Below, piece after piece: positions 9,710 through 24,815 of a stretch of 64,000 nt of DNA. Positions within the stretch are counted from its first letter, which is position 1; every line of letters begins with the position of its first letter. Below the pieces are notes generated by a model. It did no database searches. It saw nothing but the letters and a program-made list of their open reading frames with translations, and had not been told where the DNA came from. The stretch is taken from assembly GCA_000165345.1 (NCBI GenBank), contig CM000430.1, positions 640,001 through 704,000 on the forward strand, read 5' to 3'. Position numbers and translations under genes: made by a program.

Positions 9710-12043
<2,334 letters not shown>

Positions 12044-12410
12044 TTTCAAATTCTTCAATTTACATAAAAATATATATTTCTTCTTTTACTACTCTATTAT
12101 TTATCTTAATTTATATCATAAATCTTTAAAGTTAAGCTATTTTATACTATCTTAATTTATGATGAAGATTTTTTTTTAATATATATTTAAATAATTTCTA
12201 TTTCTCATATATTCAACTTTTTAATTTTTTTTTAATATAAATTTTTAATACTTTATTTTAAGTGACTGCCACTATTAAAAATACTACTACTATTATTACA
12301 TTTTTAGAGGTAATTTTTTTTATTTATTGTAATAAATATAATTTCATCATATTGTTTTATTTTTGCATGTATTATTTAAATTTACAAACTTTTGCCCGCT
12401 GACTTTATTT

Positions 12411-12421
12411 GCATGCATGCA
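12411..12421. promoter_or_regulatory. GCATGCATGCA motif (with nearby TTTGCCCGC and GCGCGGCAAA) in the divergent promoter between the 9710..12043(-) and 12736..14712(+) genes.
   Basis: Read directly from the sequence. TGCATGCA is a known over-represented Cryptosporidium upstream motif. Confidence 0.4.
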
Positions 12422-12735
12422 TTTTCGTCTCCAAATTTTTTTGTTCTTATTTAAAAAAAATGGTTTTGTGCATTAATGACTTTGTGGGTTGCGCGGCAAA
12501 TTTGAATATATTTTTTTCTATTGGTTGAATTAAAAAAAAGAATTTAATTAATAATAAATAATTTATTAATAGTTAAAGTGTGAGAAGTAGTGGAAGTATT
12601 ACTTTTATTATCTTTGATAATAATAAGAATATAAATTAAAAATATTGGTCTTTTTTTTTTTTTCTTTCCTATCCCTTTTACTTCCATTCAATTATACTCC
12701 TTACTCTTACCAGAAAAGCAAATAAAGAAGTTTAA

Positions 12736-14712
12736 ATGGACGATTTTAGCTTTTCCTTAAATAAATTAAGAAAAGAACAAGAAAAAGAAAGAAAAAAAGT
12801 ACTTGAAAAAAAACAAAGAGAAAAAAAATTTCAAGAAATCAACAAATTTAAAATTGATGATTACTTATCTAATATTGAAAGAACCTTTATTAAACAACAA
12901 AATAATATTTCAAATGAAGTGTATTTAGAACATAAAAACCCAAATAATCAAATTTTTCAAGAAGAAAATAAATACTCTTGGATACTTAAGCTAAATTTAA
13001 AAGATTATAATAATAATAATAATAATAATAATAGTAATAGTAATTCAAAATTTCCAAATAATGGTGAAACTGATCAAGTAATACTCCCAAATAACCTACT
13101 TAAAATATTAAGTAGTGATGAATCAATATATCCACTATATTTTAATATAAAATGTTTAAACCATCATATTTCTGAAAATATTAATCCAATTGAAACTCAT
13201 TGTGGAGTATTGGACTATTCCGAAGAACCAGGATACATTTCTTTACCGAATAAAGTTCTTAGATGTTTAAATATTAATCCAAATGATTCAGATTTTAAAA
13301 GTAATAAACCAATAATATGGATTCAAATTACATACAAAAAACTTTTAAAAGGATCTTTTGCTTCTTTTGAAATCTTAAATAATCAGGATATATTCAAAAT
13401 GCATGATATTGAATCTTTACTTGAAAGTTATTTAAGAAATCATTTTCTTACTTTGACAATTGGAGATACATTAATGATTAATCAACCAAATTATTCTAGT
13501 AATAACTATTGTATTTCTTTAATTAAAGTAAAACATTTAGAACCTGATAATTCGATTAGTTTAATCAATACTGATATTTCATTAGATATTACATATAAAG
13601 ATTCAAAGAATGAACAAACAATTCAAGATCATGCTGAAAATACCATTGAAAATTCAATCAGACTGATGAATATTGGTGATATTATTCATTTTGATGATAA
13701 ATTGGATGATTTAATTAATTTCAAATTAGATATACCATTTAATTTGAAAAAAGTCTTTCTAAATGAATCAGATACTGAAAATAATACAAAATTGAATATT
13801 TCAATCATTTCAAATCATTATTATGATATTTTTGTTTCATTTCCTCCCATTTTTGAAGCATCATCACATCTTCACATTTTCAGATCGTTTCCTGAAGACT
13901 ACTGCTACTACTCTAATTCTAACAACAATAATAAAAGCAAAAATACTAACCTGGTCATATCAAGTAACGAATTTATTAACTACTTAAAAACATTAGAAAG
14001 AAATATTTCTTGTAATCAAGACTCATCTTCATTGTTATTATTATTTCCCTCGATACTTTTTATTACCATCCAAAAACATAAAAATTCATCCTCAATTAAC
14101 AATGATATTATTTCAAATAATGAAAAATGCTCATTATCTTCTAGTATTCAAGTAAATATCCAATATTATAAAAAGGAAAGTACAATAGACGTAATCAATC
14201 AACCAATAGAAAACGAATTTTCAACTTGTATTAATTGTAAAAGAAAAATACCGAGTGATAATTTAGATCTACATTCTTTACAATGCGAAAAAATGTATAA
14301 AAGATGCAATCAATGCGATCTTATTTTAAAAAAGAGTGATTTTGAAAAACATACTCACTGTAATAAATGTATTAAATTTGGATTAAGCTTAGACCAAATT
14401 CAAATTCATGACAAATTATATCATCAATTTACTCAATGTAAACTTTGTAACCAAGATAATATTAAACCTATACAACTTACAATACATCAAACACAAGAAT
14501 GTCCAAAAAGGATAATACTTTGTAGGTATTGTAATAATTTTGTACAAGCCGGTACCGATGGACATTATGTTGATTATAAAGATAAGTATTATTATAACTT
14601 AACATCACACGAATCTTATTGTGGATCTAGAACAACAAATTGTAATATATGTAATAAAATTGTATTAATTAAAGAATTAAAATTTCATATTGATCTAGTA
14701 CATGCAAAATAA
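12736..14712 (+). CDS. UFD1-domain protein with a C-terminal array of TRAF-type/C2HC zinc fingers (658 aa).
   Basis: ATG at 12736 verified. Residues about 110-290 align to the UFD1 N-domain (ILPxxLLxxL...YPLYFNI...THCGVLDYSEEPGYISLP...LRNHFLTLTIGDTLMINQ). The C-terminus has repeated C-x2-C-x11-H-x3-C units. Confidence 0.8.
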   Translation: MDDFSFSLNKLRKEQEKERKKVLEKKQREKKFQEINKFKIDDYLSNIERTFIKQQNNISNEVYLEHKNPNNQIFQEENKYSWILKLNLKDYNNNNNNNNSNSNSKFPNNGETDQVILPNNLLKILSSDESIYPLYFNIKCLNHHISENINPIETHCGVLDYSEEPGYISLPNKVLRCLNINPNDSDFKSNKPIIWIQITYKKLLKGSFASFEILNNQDIFKMHDIESLLESYLRNHFLTLTIGDTLMINQPNYSSNNYCISLIKVKHLEPDNSISLINTDISLDITYKDSKNEQTIQDHAENTIENSIRLMNIGDIIHFDDKLDDLINFKLDIPFNLKKVFLNESDTENNTKLNISIISNHYYDIFVSFPPIFEASSHLHIFRSFPEDYCYYSNSNNNNKSKNTNLVISSNEFINYLKTLERNISCNQDSSSLLLLFPSILFITIQKHKNSSSINNDIISNNEKCSLSSSIQVNIQYYKKESTIDVINQPIENEFSTCINCKRKIPSDNLDLHSLQCEKMYKRCNQCDLILKKSDFEKHTHCNKCIKFGLSLDQIQIHDKLYHQFTQCKLCNQDNIKPIQLTIHQTQECPKRIILCRYCNNFVQAGTDGHYVDYKDKYYYNLTSHESYCGSRTTNCNICNKIVLIKELKFHIDLVHAK

Positions 14713-14725
14713 ATATTATTTTCTA

Positions 14726-15477
14726 TCAAAGTTCAATTCTCTCCTTCATAAACTTATTATTAAATGGAATCTGATCAGTATTCTCCAAATTTGAAATACT
14801 ATATTTTTGGGGGAAAACATCAAAATAACTCATTACATCCTCTTCTAGATCTAAATTATTCATCTGAATGGAATTTTTATTTTCATTACTATCAATTATA
14901 AAATTATTACCCATATTTGCTTTATTCTCATTATGTAAACTTTTTAATATACAATACGTACTCATCTGTTTAATCAAAATATCTTTTAGATATTCCTTTT
15001 CTATTTTTAAATTCTCAATTTTCTTCTTCATATGTAATTTATCTTTAGATTCGTTTTTTTCATTATATATTTCTTTAATCATACAAATTACCCTATCTAT
15101 TCCTTTAATGAATTCTCTACATAAAGACTGTTCTCTTAATAATTCCATCTTCAGTTCTTCTTCCTTTTCGTCACTTTTAACCCCTTTTTGATTATTTTCT
15201 AAAAAAAATATTACTTTATACTTTAATAATAAAAAAAATAAAGTCAATCAAATTTTAATTAGTCATTTTTTAATCATTAACTTTCCCATATTTACAAACG
15301 TACCTTTTTAATCTCTAACTCTAATTTCTTAACTTCCCATTTAACTTCACATAGCAATGTTTCAACCAACTCTTTAGTTGCTCCTGTTATATACCCATCC
15401 AGATCTTTCTCTTTAACTTTATTTATCTCAATATTACCTGAATTTCCTACTTTGTAAATTTCATAGTTTTTCTCCAT
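14726..15477 (-). CDS. Two-exon coiled-coil protein (about 223 aa). Exon 1 is 15477..15304 and exon 2 is 15220..14726, with an 83-nt intron at 15303..15221.
   Basis: Both the 81-aa and 173-aa track ORFs 'start' at TTG. The first ATG is at 15477. A canonical donor AAG|GTACGT lies at 15303-15298. A poly-pyrimidine tract plus AAG| acceptor ends at 15221. Both junctions are phase 0 and the frames join as ...LEIKK|YKVIFF... Confidence 0.5.
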
Positions 15478-16496
15478 ATTTACTTTTTCAATTCTATTAT
15501 ACAAACTAATATTAAGATCTCGTTGATTTCTTCTCAACTACTGATTTACCTTTATTTCATATTAATAATACAAAAAATAACTGTTTTAAGTTACTAAAAA
15601 ATTTTTCACCTAATAAAAAAGGTAAAGATTAATGTATTTTTTTTAACTTAATGATTTTGAAAAAAAATGTTAAAATCTTCTGCTTAGAGCAATGAAATCA
15701 TTCAATATTCATCCACATTTGTCAAATTTTGTTTTGACAAGTCGGTATCTAAGATCCTTTTTCAAGAATTAAGATAAACTGACTTAATTAAGATTTATTG
15801 ACCAAACAAAGTTGAATATAGGCAAATGATTCTTACTTTAACTAGTATTTTTTGTTTCTTATTTATTAATTTCTATTTTCTGTATACTAGATGAATAATA
15901 AATATTGTTTCTGCCAATTTAAACGCTTTCCCGCCATTAATTAATTTTATTAAGATCATTACTTAGCATGCAAATCAATAATTTAAAAATAAAGCGCCAA
16001 ATTGCATGCAATTTCTATATTTTCTCCCCACATATTTTTTTGACAATTTTTTTTTGGAAAAAGAAGGAAAATAAAAAAGTTTTGTTTATTTTTAAAGGTT
16101 TTGAGTGTTCACAAAATGTTTAGCTGAAATTTCTTTTTAAATCTATAAATAGATTTTCTCTTATTATGTTCTATTTTAAAGTCGTCAGAGCGACTTTTTT
16201 TTTAATAAATATACATTATCATTTTTTCGAATTATTAAAAAAAAGATTAATTACTAATTAAGAATATAGAAATATATAGAGATACTTGATTAGTTAAACA
16301 AATGTATTAATATTATATTGTAGGTGTATTTCTATTGAAGTTCGTGTACTATATGCTTATTATTTGAAGTGGCGCCAATATGTGGGGCTAAAGTTTCTAA
16401 TTAATTTATTATTGTTAATCCAGAAAGTTTAATGTTTAATAAAGCTATTAACGGTAGAAAAAAAAAGGAAGAAAGAAAAGGCAAATGAATTAATAA

Positions 16497-18533
16497 TTAT
16501 TGCTGATATGACCATGGACCAAATTTATTTTTCTGAATTTCCTTGCATTTAATACTTAATTCCTTCAAGTGATCCTTGTTGATACTCTTAATCAGCAACG
16601 TTTTAGTAATATTCAAAAGTCTTTCCAATGAAGACTTTAGCTTGTCCTTAATTTCATATATGCTTTTGCTTGGAGTTTGTCTTTTTGTGATTCCAACTTC
16701 CTTATTGTTTTTATTACAAGAAGAACTATTATAAGTATTGTTAGTACTAGTAATATCAACAGAAGATTCCGGTATAGAGCTATGATCGCTTTGTTCAAAA
16801 ATACTTGTCATTATCCCATCATAGTATTCCTTATATCTTGTAATGATTTGATTGTTAACGTCAGTTTTTTTAGTAAAACCAGCTTCCAAACTTTGAGAAG
16901 GCTGGTTTTGCTCGGGAATCAAACGATTTTCGCAAGAATTCGACGGATCAATACATTTTAAATCATCATATTGAGAATCTGCGATTGTACTGTTTAAAGC
17001 AGGCTTCTCTTCATCCTGTTCTTCCTTTTCCTTTACTTCGTCATTGTCTAAAAAATACTCGAAGCTTTGCATATTCAAATCAGTAGAATTTATAGGTATA
17101 CTATCTCTAATCTTGTGATTATCATCTTTGAAAAATTCAATGCAATCATAAGAGGGATTGGATGAATATTTGAGCTCCATTTCTTGGATATAATCAACAT
17201 CCAGATCTATTTCAAACTGAGATTCTGTGATAAGTTCACTCCATACATGAGGTAAAGAAATTATATTAGGATCATTTGTTAGATTACCATGATTTACAAC
17301 ATTATAATCACCAGAATCATTTATTAAATCTGAATCAGGAAATCCAAAGTCATTACTTTTGTGGTTAATATTATTATTGTTAGTATTATTAGAAAACAAT
17401 GTATTAAAGTTATTAAAGAATCGAATTACATTACTTTTTCCTAGTTCATCTTTGATATTCAAAAATACATTTCCAAAGATTCCATTCTTAGTTGTTGGAG
17501 TTGAGTATTTGATTGCATTCATAATATCTGCAATATCATTTGAATAAAGTATATTGGATTCAATTCTTTGAAGCCTATATAATATAAGTTTATATAATGG
17601 AACCCAACCTTGCTGAAAGAAATCATCCCAAAATTTTCCTATGATATTTAAAGGTATACTATATGAGAAAAGAGTTAGAAACCAATCAGTAGCTAACATA
17701 TCTATAGTGCCTCCCTGTCTAATAATATGATCCCATATAATATGTAATTCTTTTTCCATTAATTGATTCAAAATTAAACATTTGACTCTTAATCCCGGCA
17801 ATCCTGATACAAACATTTCTCTCATGCCGTAATTAAACATTAAAGAAACCAATAATTCAAATGCCTGTTCTTCACTACTTGAATGCCAAAGTATACATCC
17901 AACTAAAAAATTCATACCTTGTACATATCCAACATCTATATCCATCAATGAATATATTAACAAAATCTTACTCAAGTAACTTTTACCTTCAAATTTGAAA
18001 TAAGAAATTGATGGATACGTCCTACATACATCCATATATATACTATTCATTACTCTATTACTAAATATTTTATTTATTACACCATTTTCTGTCAAATCTA
18101 TTTCAATTATATCGCTTCCCTCCATTCTTACAATGTACTCGACTATATTTATTAATTCTCTATAAATGGTTGTCAATCCTAATTCATTAGATTTCGAAAC
18201 CTCTAACCAATTCTGCATTCTCACACATCTTCCTTGATTGTCTTTATCACAATCACAATGAGGCCCTACTTTATCAAGCTTTAGAAATCGAACAAAACTA
18301 AGTCTTTTTCTATCATTTGTTTTTTTTCTCAAATCCGAATTTAGGCATCCTGGTTCTTTCGTATTCGTCTCCTCTTGCTTCTTCTCAAATCCTGATTCTG
18401 ATTCAGAATCAGATTCTACTTCATTCTTTGATGGCTGCATTTCTTCTACATTATTCAATGAGGGAACAAAATAATTATATGCTTTTTTCACTGCTAGCAA
18501 GGTCACAATATTTGTTTCCTCTTTCAATTCCAT
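16497..18533 (-). CDS. TBC-domain Rab GTPase-activating protein (678 aa).
   Basis: ATG at 18533 verified. TBC signature motifs are present: IDVGYVQGMNFLVG and the arginine-finger region; ...DWFLTLFSY... Confidence 0.85.
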   Translation of the reverse strand: MELKEETNIVTLLAVKKAYNYFVPSLNNVEEMQPSKNEVESDSESESGFEKKQEETNTKEPGCLNSDLRKKTNDRKRLSFVRFLKLDKVGPHCDCDKDNQGRCVRMQNWLEVSKSNELGLTTIYRELINIVEYIVRMEGSDIIEIDLTENGVINKIFSNRVMNSIYMDVCRTYPSISYFKFEGKSYLSKILLIYSLMDIDVGYVQGMNFLVGCILWHSSSEEQAFELLVSLMFNYGMREMFVSGLPGLRVKCLILNQLMEKELHIIWDHIIRQGGTIDMLATDWFLTLFSYSIPLNIIGKFWDDFFQQGWVPLYKLILYRLQRIESNILYSNDIADIMNAIKYSTPTTKNGIFGNVFLNIKDELGKSNVIRFFNNFNTLFSNNTNNNNINHKSNDFGFPDSDLINDSGDYNVVNHGNLTNDPNIISLPHVWSELITESQFEIDLDVDYIQEMELKYSSNPSYDCIEFFKDDNHKIRDSIPINSTDLNMQSFEYFLDNDEVKEKEEQDEEKPALNSTIADSQYDDLKCIDPSNSCENRLIPEQNQPSQSLEAGFTKKTDVNNQIITRYKEYYDGIMTSIFEQSDHSSIPESSVDITSTNNTYNSSSCNKNNKEVGITKRQTPSKSIYEIKDKLKSSLERLLNITKTLLIKSINKDHLKELSIKCKEIQKNKFGPWSYQQ

Positions 18534-19294: not shown

Positions 19295-20574
19295 TCATTT
19301 TGAATATTTATGACAGTTCATAACTTGTGCTAGAAAGGCTTCAATATGCCATATATCTTTACTTCCAAGCTTTAATGTATGAGCGTAGTGTGCAGCAGCA
19401 TTAATAATGATTGGTTGAGCACTGGCAGAAACAATTGATAGTAGCTGTTTAGTTAATGTAACAAGAATCAAATCAGCTGGAATACAGCTACATAACAAGT
19501 CGTATAAAGGTTCTCTTACATCTAAAAGCGTTTTTGGATGAGGGTTTTTAACAATCTGAGTTTAGAAATAAAAAAAATGTTGGTTAGAGGTTTTGGGATG
19601 GGAAATCAAATAAGAAATAAATTATATATATTCAAATCTTGGAGGTTTTTGTAGGAAACTTACGCTAGTGGCAATATCAATGCAAACCTTTTGCCATGGA
19701 AGCTTCAAAGCACTTGGAGGATTTGAAAAAGATTGTGTATGAGCAGTTTCTAATATTAGAATTGCTCTTCTTAAATTACATTCAGATTCTGTAACTATTT
19801 GTTCGAGATAATTATTAGGTACTTGAAGATTTTCAGAATTAGAAATAAATCTCAAAACTTGAAGAACCTCCTCAGGAGAAGGTAAAGGCACCCTAATACA
19901 TAAACATCGGCTTCTTAAGGGTGGAATGATAGATGATAACTGTTCACAATGTAATATTAATCTACTGTTATTTGAATACTTTTCCATAGTCCTTCTTAGC
20001 CCTGCTTGAGCCTTTAAAGATAAGACATCAGCCTCCAGTATTGTAAATACACGATAATTTGGGCCTTTAGAAAAGAATGAGTTGGCTCCCATTTGTGAAC
20101 TTAGTTGCTTAATTAAATATTGTGTAACTATGCCATCCTTCGTACCCAAATCTGGTGCACTAATCTGCATATGATGGGGGCTTTGGCATAAAACAAATTC
20201 ACTATTTGTTCCTTCTGGTTTTATCATATCTGCTTTAACCTATAAAAAAATTACTCTAGTAAATCGTACTATAAAGAAAATTATTATTATTGCTTTACTT
20301 TCCTTCTCAATTCAACTCTCAGTTCAAACAATAATAATGGAAATATTGTTAATTACAATTTCTCCCAACTTACCTTATCTACTGAATCTCCAAAAATTTC
20401 GTGCAGAACTGATGAAATTCTTACTTTTTTCCCTCCCCCTGAAGGGCCGTAAAAAAGCAAATGTGGAATATTACCATTTGAATTTGAAGTAATCTTTTCT
20501 AATAAACTATTTAGTTCTTTGTTGCACTTCAAATCCCTAAGATATCGTGGCTGGTATTTATCAATCCAAAGCAT
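19295..20574 (-). CDS. RFC3: Replication factor C small subunit (RFC3/RFC38-like), three exons: 20574..20374, 20239..19664 and 19555..19295.
   Basis: The three track ORFs (73, 201 and 67 aa) align collinearly with RFC3: PHLLFYGPSGGGKK Walker A, then LRRTMEKYS...SRC, then the C-terminal LGSKDIWHIEAF. Donors are AAG|GTAAGT at 20373 and AGC|GTAAGT at 19663. Acceptors are T-tract+TAG| at 20240 and CTAAACTCAG| at 19556. All junctions are phase 0, with in-frame stops just inside each intron. Confidence 0.85.
19556..19663 (-). other. Intron 2 of the RFC3 gene (108 nt, GTAAGT...CAG).
   Basis: See the RFC3 evidence above. Confidence 0.75.
20240..20373 (-). other. Intron 1 of the RFC3 gene (134 nt, GTAAGT...TAG).
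   Basis: See the RFC3 evidence above. Confidence 0.75.
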
Positions 20575-23111: not shown

Positions 23112-24815
23112 ATGCCAGAACTTTATGAACTTCCATCATATTCAGCATTGAAAGAATATGCAAACAAACAAAAATGCATACACCTGAGAGATCTCCTTAA
23201 AAATGAAGTCAGAAATTCGTGTTTAACTGTCAATTTTGGAGAGATTTTTATGGATTTTACAAGACAAAACTTAGATGAAGAAGGTTTCGAGCTTTTGATT
23301 AAATTAGCAGCAGAATCGAATTTGATGGAAAAAATTAAGTTGCAGCTCAAAGGTGGGATTATTAATAGTACAGAAAAGAGAGCAGTCTTACACACTGCTC
23401 TACGTTCAAAAAGTAATATTCCTATTACTCTTTCCTCCGGTCAGAACGTACTAAATGATGTAAATGAGGTAAATAGACGAATTTTCAAGTTTGCAAATGC
23501 TATAAGAAAAGGTGAGCTTCTTGGCTCCACAGGAAAAATACTGAAAGACGTTATCTGTATTGGAATTGGAGGTAGTTACCTTGGACCTGAGTTTGTCTAT
23601 GAGGCATTAAGAACAACTCAGGAAGGCTTTGAAGCTTCCATGGGAAGAAGACTACGCTTTTTAGCTAATGTTGATCCTATAGACATTAGAAGAGCTACTG
23701 AAGGATTACATCCTGAAACTACTCTTGTTATTATTGTTAGCAAAACTTTCACAACAGCTGAAACCATTCTTAATGCAAAAACTATTAAAGAATGGCTACA
23801 CAAAGCTCTTAAAAGTGAAACTGCAGTAAGTAAGCATCTTGCTGCGGTTAGTACTAATATTAAGGCTACCTCCGATTTTGGAATTCCTGTTGACCACGTA
23901 TTTGGATTTTGGGATTGGGTTGGTGGTAGGTTTTCTGTCTGCAGTGCAGTTGGTCTTGTTCCGCTTTCAATCCATTTTGGCGCCAACCTCGTGCAGGAAT
24001 TTTTGGATGGCTGTTGGGACATGGACCAACATTATGAAACTGCTCCAGTTAGTAAGAATTTACCAGTCTTATTGGGTCTTCTTAGTGTCTATAATTCGAC
24101 ATTTATGGATAAGAGTTGTGTTGCAGTTCTCCCATATTGTCAGGCACTATGCAAATTCCCTGCACATGTACAACAATTACTTATGGAGAGTAATGGAAAG
24201 AGTTCAAGTATTGATGGAAATATGCTTCATGATAAGATTAAGACTGGCGCCATATTCTTTGGCGAGCCAGGCACTAATGCTCAACACAGTTTTTATCAGC
24301 TTTTGCATCAAGGCAGAAATACAACAAATTGCGAGTTTATTGGATTTGCAAAATCTCAATGCGACTCTCAGATCTTAGGTGATCCAATTTCTAATCATGA
24401 TGAGCTAATGTGTAATTTCTTTGCTCAGCCTGATGCATTGGCAATTGGTAAAACTCAGAGAGAGTTGAATCTAGAGGATTGTCCGGAAAATCTGATTCCT
24501 CATAAGTTATTCCAAGGAAATAGATCTTCTATTTCTCTCTTATTACCAATCTGTAGTGCATATTATATTGGCCAACTTCTTGCACTGTATGAACACAGAA
24601 CTGCAGTGGAGGGATTTATTCTAAATATTAACAGCTTTGATCAATATGGGGTGGAACTTGGTAAGGTTCTTGCTAAAGATATAAGAAACATTATTTCACT
24701 AAAAAAGACCAATTCATCTCCTGAAATTATTCAAAATAAGGAGGATAAGATTCCTGGGCCTACCAGGAGATTAATTGACTTATATTTGAGGGTTTCAAAG
24801 AGCCTGACGAATTGA
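23112..24815 (+). CDS. GPI: Glucose-6-phosphate isomerase (567 aa).
   Basis: ATG verified. Full-length PGI similarity including the GIGGSYLGPEF and FGFWDWVGGRFS motifs. Confidence 0.95.
   Translation: MPELYELPSYSALKEYANKQKCIHLRDLLKNEVRNSCLTVNFGEIFMDFTRQNLDEEGFELLIKLAAESNLMEKIKLQLKGGIINSTEKRAVLHTALRSKSNIPITLSSGQNVLNDVNEVNRRIFKFANAIRKGELLGSTGKILKDVICIGIGGSYLGPEFVYEALRTTQEGFEASMGRRLRFLANVDPIDIRRATEGLHPETTLVIIVSKTFTTAETILNAKTIKEWLHKALKSETAVSKHLAAVSTNIKATSDFGIPVDHVFGFWDWVGGRFSVCSAVGLVPLSIHFGANLVQEFLDGCWDMDQHYETAPVSKNLPVLLGLLSVYNSTFMDKSCVAVLPYCQALCKFPAHVQQLLMESNGKSSSIDGNMLHDKIKTGAIFFGEPGTNAQHSFYQLLHQGRNTTNCEFIGFAKSQCDSQILGDPISNHDELMCNFFAQPDALAIGKTQRELNLEDCPENLIPHKLFQGNRSSISLLLPICSAYYIGQLLALYEHRTAVEGFILNINSFDQYGVELGKVLAKDIRNIISLKKTNSSPEIIQNKEDKIPGPTRRLIDLYLRVSKSLTN

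Follow-up and report, generated by a model that had tools for sequence, protein, structure and literature searches.

A 64,000-nucleotide stretch of Cryptosporidium DNA (the window; positions 640,001 to 704,000 of the forward strand of contig CM000430.1, assembly GCA_000165345.1) carries a UFD1-like gene at 12736..14712 (+), counted from the first letter of the window. Its product probably represents in Cryptosporidium a eukaryotic family that is old, widespread and experimentally unstudied and is paralogous to conventional UFD1. It would act as an accessory reader of ubiquitin chains, or an adaptor, instead of serving endoplasmic-reticulum-associated degradation (ERAD) as a segregase cofactor. 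This reading draws on the architecture of the protein, its wide conservation, the ubiquitin-contact residues that were kept, the lack of SHP boxes and a locus distinct from that of the reported UFD1 orthologue. The family plan consists of a UT3 domain, a PPC-like beta-sandwich (DUF7590) and a rigid six-finger array of the XAF1/TRAFD1 type, with an AZUL domain added C-terminally in most lineages.

Domain architecture and conservation within the genus

The gene was complete in a single exon: the open reading frame (ORF) list gave one uninterrupted frame of 658 codons plus stop, without internal stop, and a TAA lay immediately 5' of its ATG. An identical 658-aa protein was called as one gene in two NCBI assemblies (GCA_031892065.1 and GCA_015245375.1), each time on a contig of about 992 kb. 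A reading of the letters alone (the sequence-only reading) had taken the UFD1 half and the zinc-finger half for one gene. This was borne out by the continuous frame, by the single gene model in both assemblies and by the same domain order in more than 100 sequence clusters of relatives. Complete ORFs from transcriptome assemblies were among these clusters, indicating that both halves are on one mRNA in those relatives.

An AlphaFold2 model built from a 74-sequence family alignment (mean predicted local distance difference test score, pLDDT, 85.4; predicted template modelling score 0.79) divided the protein into an N-terminal helix (residues 3-60), a UFD1-type domain (about 79-292), a beta-rich middle (308-480) and six beta-beta-alpha fingers (494-658). 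The N-terminal extension (residues 1-78; 12736..12969, +) started with 'MDDF' and continued as the long charged helix, modelled with block pLDDT values of 80-95. It gave no match in the Pfam scan. It was kept across the genus, with 22 invariant columns, and was common to the tail-less members of the family (form B, below) and Cardiosporidium. An (AAT)8 run at 13009..13032 (+) encoded a poly-Asn loop just before the UFD1 domain, the length of which differed among Cryptosporidium species in the alignment.

The UT3 domain, made of a double-psi beta-barrel and an Nc subdomain, covered residues 79-292 (12970..13611, +). Pfam placed UFD1_N1 at residues 107-185 (13054-13290, +; 42.5 bits, cut-off 29) and UFD1_N2 at residues 205-286 (13348-13593, +; 42.6 bits, cut-off 37), and yeast and human UFD1 were retrieved by a PDB sequence search over residues 113-302 with E values of 3e-7 to 3e-6. 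The UFD1 N-domain that had been proposed at about residues 110-290 was thereby upheld; in the structure model it began earlier, near residue 79, after the 78-aa helical extension.

The middle beta-sandwich (residues 308-480; 13657..14175, +) occupied the position of DUF7590, which in fungal members lies between UFD1_N2 and the first finger. The Cryptosporidium sequence was too diverged for a DUF7590 match in the Pfam scan. Profile-profile comparison of this region with other members gave 93.8% probability and an E value of 1.8e-7 over the core motif, which reads 'DIFVSFPP..SHLH' in Cryptosporidium and 'GDxDLfvS..P' elsewhere. The fold resembled the PPC and collagen-binding domains of bacterial collagenases, but the context here is intracellular and eukaryotic, and the Pfam scan gave no sequence-level match of the middle domain to a PPC family.

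The nearest proteins were Cryptosporidium orthologues, with identities of 98% in C. tyzzeri, 82% in the chipmunk genotype, 67% in C. ubiquitum and 59% in C. canis, down to 46%. Within the genus, conservation was highest in UT3 (73% mean pairwise identity) and the finger array (76%), followed by the N-terminal extension (57%) and the middle domain (54%), while the two linkers retained 18-21%. Such a pattern is as expected for one protein of four selected modules.

Ubiquitin-contact residues of the UT3 domain

According to two 2026 preprints, the proximal K48-linked ubiquitin rests on the UT3 ridge (human L53 and E84; yeast L55 and E86), and the neighbouring ubiquitin is gripped by its C-terminal strand in the cleft of the Nc subdomain (human K139, E143 and D186; yeast L144, E145 and D191) and is thereby unfolded (10.64898/2026.03.07.710261, 10.64898/2026.03.13.711538). 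Mutation of ridge or cleft abolished ubiquitin binding or unfolding in these reports, and UT3 could not be replaced by ordinary UBA or UBL domains.

We transferred these positions through the PDB-search alignments and tallied them in the 74-member alignment. On the ridge, human L53/yeast L55 corresponded to L122 (L in 69/74 members), and human E84/yeast E86 to D160 (E in 60/74, D in 8/74). The cleft residues L229 (human L142/yeast L144; L in 66/74, F in 7/74), E230 (human E143/yeast E145; E in 70/74) and D280 (human D186/yeast D191; D in 66/74, E in 7/74) were retained, and the hydrophobic cleft positions were likewise conserved. At the position of human K139/yeast K141 the protein had E226 (13411-13413, +). 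R or K was found there in 67/74 members and E in five, which included all four Cryptosporidium sequences in the alignment. On residue conservation, the UT3 head looks competent for K48-chain recognition.

Relation to conventional UFD1 and Cdc48

With yeast Ufd1 and human UFD1, the Cryptosporidium protein shares UT3 (double-psi barrel plus Nc) and the ridge and cleft residues except K139. In contrast to them it has no UT6 region and adds the N-terminal helix, the PPC-like beta-sandwich and the six zinc fingers. Alignments to full-length human and yeast UFD1 in the PDB search ended with the N-domain, at about residue 209, and no sequence similarity to the C-terminal half of UFD1, home of the short Npl4-binding motif, was found in the protein. 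A pattern search for SHP (FxGxG or relaxed), VIM, VBM and UIM gave nothing meaningful in the protein, which contains only 10 Gly. SHP-like strings were present in just 3 of 124 family members, at scattered, non-equivalent positions. Thus the SHP element by which conventional Ufd1 binds Cdc48 is lacking in the family as a whole. The N-terminal helix was also considered as a VIM (Rx5AAx2R); this was dropped, as Cryptosporidium has no Ala pair there. The proposal that fingers had replaced the C-terminal p97/Npl4-binding region was correct in that this region appears to be missing (by the alignment end and the lack of SHP), but the conserved domain of about 170 aa at residues 308-480 intervenes.

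The main rival has the protein deliver ubiquitin chains to the Cdc48/p97 ATPase as UFD1 does, as a genuine cofactor that is recruited in some other way, for example by its charged N-terminal helix, by the fingers or via a UBX protein acting as a bridge. The ubiquitin-unfolding cleft of UT3 and the N-terminal helix are both conserved, and UT3 unfolding has to date been reported only in connection with Cdc48 (10.64898/2026.03.07.710261, 10.64898/2026.03.13.711538). The fusion of UFD1_N1 and UFD1_N2 to UBX in P0227, a 437-aa protein from a Joint Genome Institute (JGI) metagenome, would bind Cdc48 directly, and indicates that UT3 has been reused with different Cdc48-binding modules. However, neither UBX nor PUB was found in the Cryptosporidium protein, any more than SHP, VIM or VBM, and the rare SHP-like strings of its relatives are scattered. 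In addition, the AZUL domain carried by most members is a proteasome-docking module in UBE3A, not a Cdc48-docking one. We consider recruitment to Cdc48 unlikely.

It had also been suggested that this might be the only UFD1 of the parasite, with extra ubiquitin- or zinc-binding capacity. On this view the conventional gene would have been lost, and the protein with its remodelled C-terminus would serve both ERAD and the segregase. The public annotation, 'ubiquitin fusion degradation protein UFD1', is in line with this suggestion. However, in a survey from 2008 the OrthoMCL group of yeast UFD1 and P. falciparum PF14_0178 is represented by cgd4_1200, and Cdc48 and Npl4 are given as cgd1_330 and cgd7_1970 (PMC2408969 Table S2). 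The UFD1-like gene lies on chromosome 2 and is therefore a different locus from cgd4_1200. The same architecture in many fungi and the missing SHP boxes argue in the same direction. Loss of the conventional gene is thus very unlikely, and the UFD1-like gene is probably neither the only UFD1 of the parasite nor an ERAD component with a swapped tail; Cryptosporidium annotation should not give it the role of UFD1 in ERAD. Discussion of UFD1 normally assumes one essential Cdc48 cofactor, and fungi with the architecture described here are expected to keep a conventional UFD1 too. Arabidopsis AT4G15420, which may belong to the family described here, is listed in reviews simply as one of four UFD1 genes.

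The zinc-finger array

Six fingers were assigned over residues 494-658 (14215..14709, +) from their ligands and the structure model. The ligands were C498, C501, H513 and C517 in finger 1 (14227-14286, +); C524, C527, H539 and H541 in finger 2 (14305-14358, +); C542, C545, H558 and H563 in finger 3 (14359-14424, +); C568, C571, H584 and C589 in finger 4 (14437-14502, +); C596, C599, H625 and C629 in finger 5 (14521-14622, +); and C636, C639, H651 and H656 in finger 6 (14641-14703, +). The protein ended two residues past the last zinc ligand. At least four C-x2-C-x11-H-x3-C fingers of the TRAF/XAF1 type had been predicted. The type was supported by Pfam and by structural matches, but there were six fingers, and the exact C-x2-C-x11-H-x3-C spacing occurred in finger 1 only; the others were C2H2 or C2HC with intervals of x11-x25 and x1-x4.

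The Pfam model TRAFD1-XIAF1_ZnF (PF21366) matched residues 621-651 with 41.5 bits against a cut-off of 27. Finger 1 scored 13.8 bits with Znf_XAF1_N (PF23580), below the cut-off of 27, but the same finger was matched at E<=0.001 in 60/74 family members; residues 494-547 gave weak matches to the XAF1 N-terminal and CEP104 fingers in Pfam. In the PDB sequence search, residues 584-653 retrieved FLN29/TRAFD1 (2d9k; E 1.3e-5). The C-terminal 165 aa held 25 of the 45 Cys/His of the protein (hypergeometric P 5.6e-6), and 19 of the 20 columns that were invariant over the 74 family members were finger Cys/His. The array was modelled as a rigid unit with a pLDDT of 95.5, and its best structural matches were the fingers of TRAFD1 and TRAF. 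The likeness to TRAF proteins is confined to the finger type, since their RING and C-terminal MATH/TRAF-C domains were not matched here (no RING or MATH match in the Pfam scan of the protein at E<=1).

These results bear on a reading in which the array does the work, as in the ubiquitin-ligase regulators or adaptors XAF1 and TRAFD1, by binding RING, inhibitor-of-apoptosis (IAP) or TRAF-type proteins, and UT3 is a mere peptide-binding or scaffold module. The array is collinear with the Pfam order Znf_XAF1_N ... TRAFD1-XIAF1_ZnF, it is the most conserved region, and its rigidity and its closeness to TRAFD1 and TRAF fingers fit such a role. The animal adaptors XAF1 and TRAFD1/FLN29 share this finger type but, unlike the Cryptosporidium protein, are without a UT3 domain. 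Their roles are known from animals, where they belong to innate immunity and apoptosis (IAP and TRAF signalling), pathways that are not described in Cryptosporidium. Moreover, the ubiquitin-contact residues of UT3 are kept family-wide, which argues that UT3 is functional. A ligase adaptor with an idle UT3 is quite unlikely, and this idea is less an alternative to the accessory-reader interpretation than a partial overlap with it. It is extremely unlikely that the protein binds nucleic acids through its fingers and has no part in ubiquitin handling: the stronger finger matches were to TRAF, TRAFD1 and UBZ, and UT3 accompanies the fingers in every case, often with further ubiquitin-system modules (AZUL, UBA or NZF).

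Breadth and forms of the family

With a Cryptosporidium profile, HMMER was run exhaustively over 1.84 billion representative proteins and returned 1047 at E<=1e-3, of which 381 reached E<=1e-10. The best 150 matches were mostly of 500-800 aa and had two matched stretches, in the same domain order in most. Relatives beyond Cryptosporidium were also retrieved by a word-indexed protein search with an alignment cleared of low-complexity (Asn-rich) sequence. Sub-profile scans of 155 sequences showed 124 in which a UFD1 domain was followed by the complete array (about 160 aa), and 8 of the 10 long apparent exceptions carried UFD1 domains by Pfam. Array-only matches were mostly metagenome fragments in a cluster look-up.

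Among the 74 sampled members, Pfam detected UFD1_N2 in all 74, UFD1_N1 in 72, the TRAFD1/XAF1 finger in 69, the XAF1 N-terminal finger in 60, AZUL in 43, DUF7590 in 13, UBA_7 in 4 and zf_UBZ in 3. Named members were all labelled hypothetical or 'UFD1-domain-containing'. Outside fungi they came from Cryptosporidium species, the apicomplexan Cardiosporidium cionae and the choanoflagellate Choanoeca flexa. Fungal members were found in Glomeromycota, Mortierellomycota, Mucoromycota, Zoopagomycota, some Ascomycota and a chytrid (Ambispora, Rhizophagus, Gigaspora, Mortierella, Mucor, Rhizopus, Basidiobolus, Smittium, Dispira, Lipomyces, Geotrichum, Peziza and Rhizina). The idea of a lineage-specific adaptor did not survive this distribution, as the same architecture was present in many fungal phyla, other alveolates and a choanoflagellate.

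Proteins of the order UFD1_N1/N2, DUF7590, Znf_XAF1_N, TRAFD1-XIAF1_ZnF and AZUL in fungi and elsewhere resembled the Cryptosporidium protein in domain order, invariant ligands and a homologous middle domain (examples of this uncharacterised family are Ambispora gerdemannii CAG8454258.1, Lipomyces oligophaga XP_066779894.1 and Cardiosporidium cionae KAF8822352.1). Compared with AZUL-bearing fungal members, the Cryptosporidium protein has no C-terminal tail or AZUL but possesses the 'MDDF' helical extension. Two forms were distinguished among 176 two-domain sequences. Form A (89 sequences) had a short N-terminus and a C-terminal tail with an AZUL-like motif. Form B (23 sequences) had an N-terminal extension of at least 60 residues, consisting of 'MD(D/S/E)F' and a charged helix, and stopped within a few residues of the last finger; it comprised all Cryptosporidium proteins and several environmental eukaryotes. 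Cardiosporidium carried both the N-terminal extension and AZUL. The Pfam scan gave no AZUL match in the Cryptosporidium protein; AZUL is not universal in the family, so membership is unaffected, and its absence is thus a trait of one sub-lineage and not of Cryptosporidium alone.

In other lineages, a CxxC...CxxC element preceding AZUL looked like an A20-type finger; it was not called by Pfam and was set aside, and Cryptosporidium is without this element. One family member, P0150 (878 aa), had zinc fingers of the RanBP2/NZF type inserted between the six-finger array and AZUL. A relative, P0028 (799 aa), contained about eight tandem copies, about 61 aa apart, of a unit matching the last finger of the array.

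Novelty at the sequence level is limited. GenBank already labels the gene 'ubiquitin fusion degradation (UFD1) family protein, double Psi beta barrel fold', the domain combination is in precomputed Pfam annotation, and a Pfam DUF model exists for the middle domain. A literature search for UFD1 with AZUL, XAF1/TRAFD1 or zinc-finger paralogues found no paper describing or testing the family, and nothing was found for cgd4_1200, cgd2_3150 or cgd2_3160 by name. The family is a catalogued but unstudied UFD1 variant, not a Cryptosporidium peculiarity.

Proposed function

As an accessory reader, the protein would bind K48-linked ubiquitin through UT3 as conventional UFD1 does, given the conserved contact residues. 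One ubiquitin would sit on the ridge (L122 and D160), and the C-terminal strand of the next would enter the cleft (L229, E230 and D280). The finger array, possibly together with the N-terminal helix, would then dock the bound chain or substrate onto a partner. Since the usual Ufd1 SHP boxes are absent and no Npl4-binding segment could be aligned, a link to Cdc48 through them would not be expected. The relatives that carry extra ubiquitin-binding modules (UBA, UBZ or RanBP2/NZF) fit a role as ubiquitin receptors.

Several points weigh against this reading. E226 is a charge reversal at the equivalent of human K139, which is needed for ubiquitin unfolding, and may weaken or alter ubiquitin handling in Cryptosporidium. 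Cdc48 or Npl4 could still bind through an unrecognised surface. The only source for a second, conventional UFD1 in the genome is the table in PMC2408969, the C. hominis column of which has an evident typo.

In Cryptosporidium, many fungi, other alveolates and a choanoflagellate, there is a protein, probably a second one, built on a UFD1 head, with the ubiquitin-gripping residues kept and the SHP boxes absent. In UBE3A, AZUL docks on the proteasome subunit Rpn10. We also considered that the family may be a second route for the ATP-independent prying of K48-linked ubiquitin by UT3, without Cdc48-Npl4. In most lineages AZUL would dock on the proteasome and the unfolded ubiquitin would start degradation directly, with the N-terminal helix replacing AZUL in Cryptosporidium. 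This extension is speculative and rather improbable. Because UT3 is conserved without the Cdc48 link, the family offers a direct test case for the use of UT3 unfolding elsewhere in the ubiquitin system; the interest comes mainly from the 2026 preprint reports that UT3 itself unfolds ubiquitin.

Locus and neighbouring genes

By position, we infer that the UFD1-like gene is cgd2_3150 of C. parvum chromosome 2, because published quantitative PCR (qPCR) primers for cgd2_3140 and cgd2_3170 flank it. The qPCR primers for cgd2_3100 to cgd2_3240 (PMC3305300 supplement) mapped in order over 369-33264 of the window, with those for cgd2_3170 falling on a RabGAP gene at 16497-18533. The forward primer of C. 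parvum glucose-6-phosphate isomerase (CpGPI, cgd2_3200; PMC6114080) matched exactly at 23112, the start of the glucose-6-phosphate isomerase (PGI) ORF.

The G+C minimum of the window was at 12001-14000 (0.211, compared with 0.25-0.41 elsewhere), a stretch that takes in the intergenic DNA upstream of the UFD1-like gene as well as its 5' half. Upstream, at 9710-12058 (-), primer mapping placed cgd2_3140, the ORF of which is mucin-like, rich in Thr and Asn, and includes long runs of poly-Thr. Its annotated length was 1519 aa in one and 752 aa in the other of the two NCBI assemblies, which suggests a difference in repeat length or assembly. Downstream, a convergent gene at 14726-15477 (-) had its stop only 14 nt from that of the UFD1-like gene. 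It was annotated as 222 or 209 aa over 752 nt, had no recorded Pfam match and fell into two ORF pieces (14726-15247 and 15292-15537), making an intron probable. The 201-aa ORF at 19622-20227 (-), assigned to cgd2_3180 by primer mapping, corresponded to a replication factor C small subunit in the lid and C-terminal portions alone and is probably one exon of a spliced gene.

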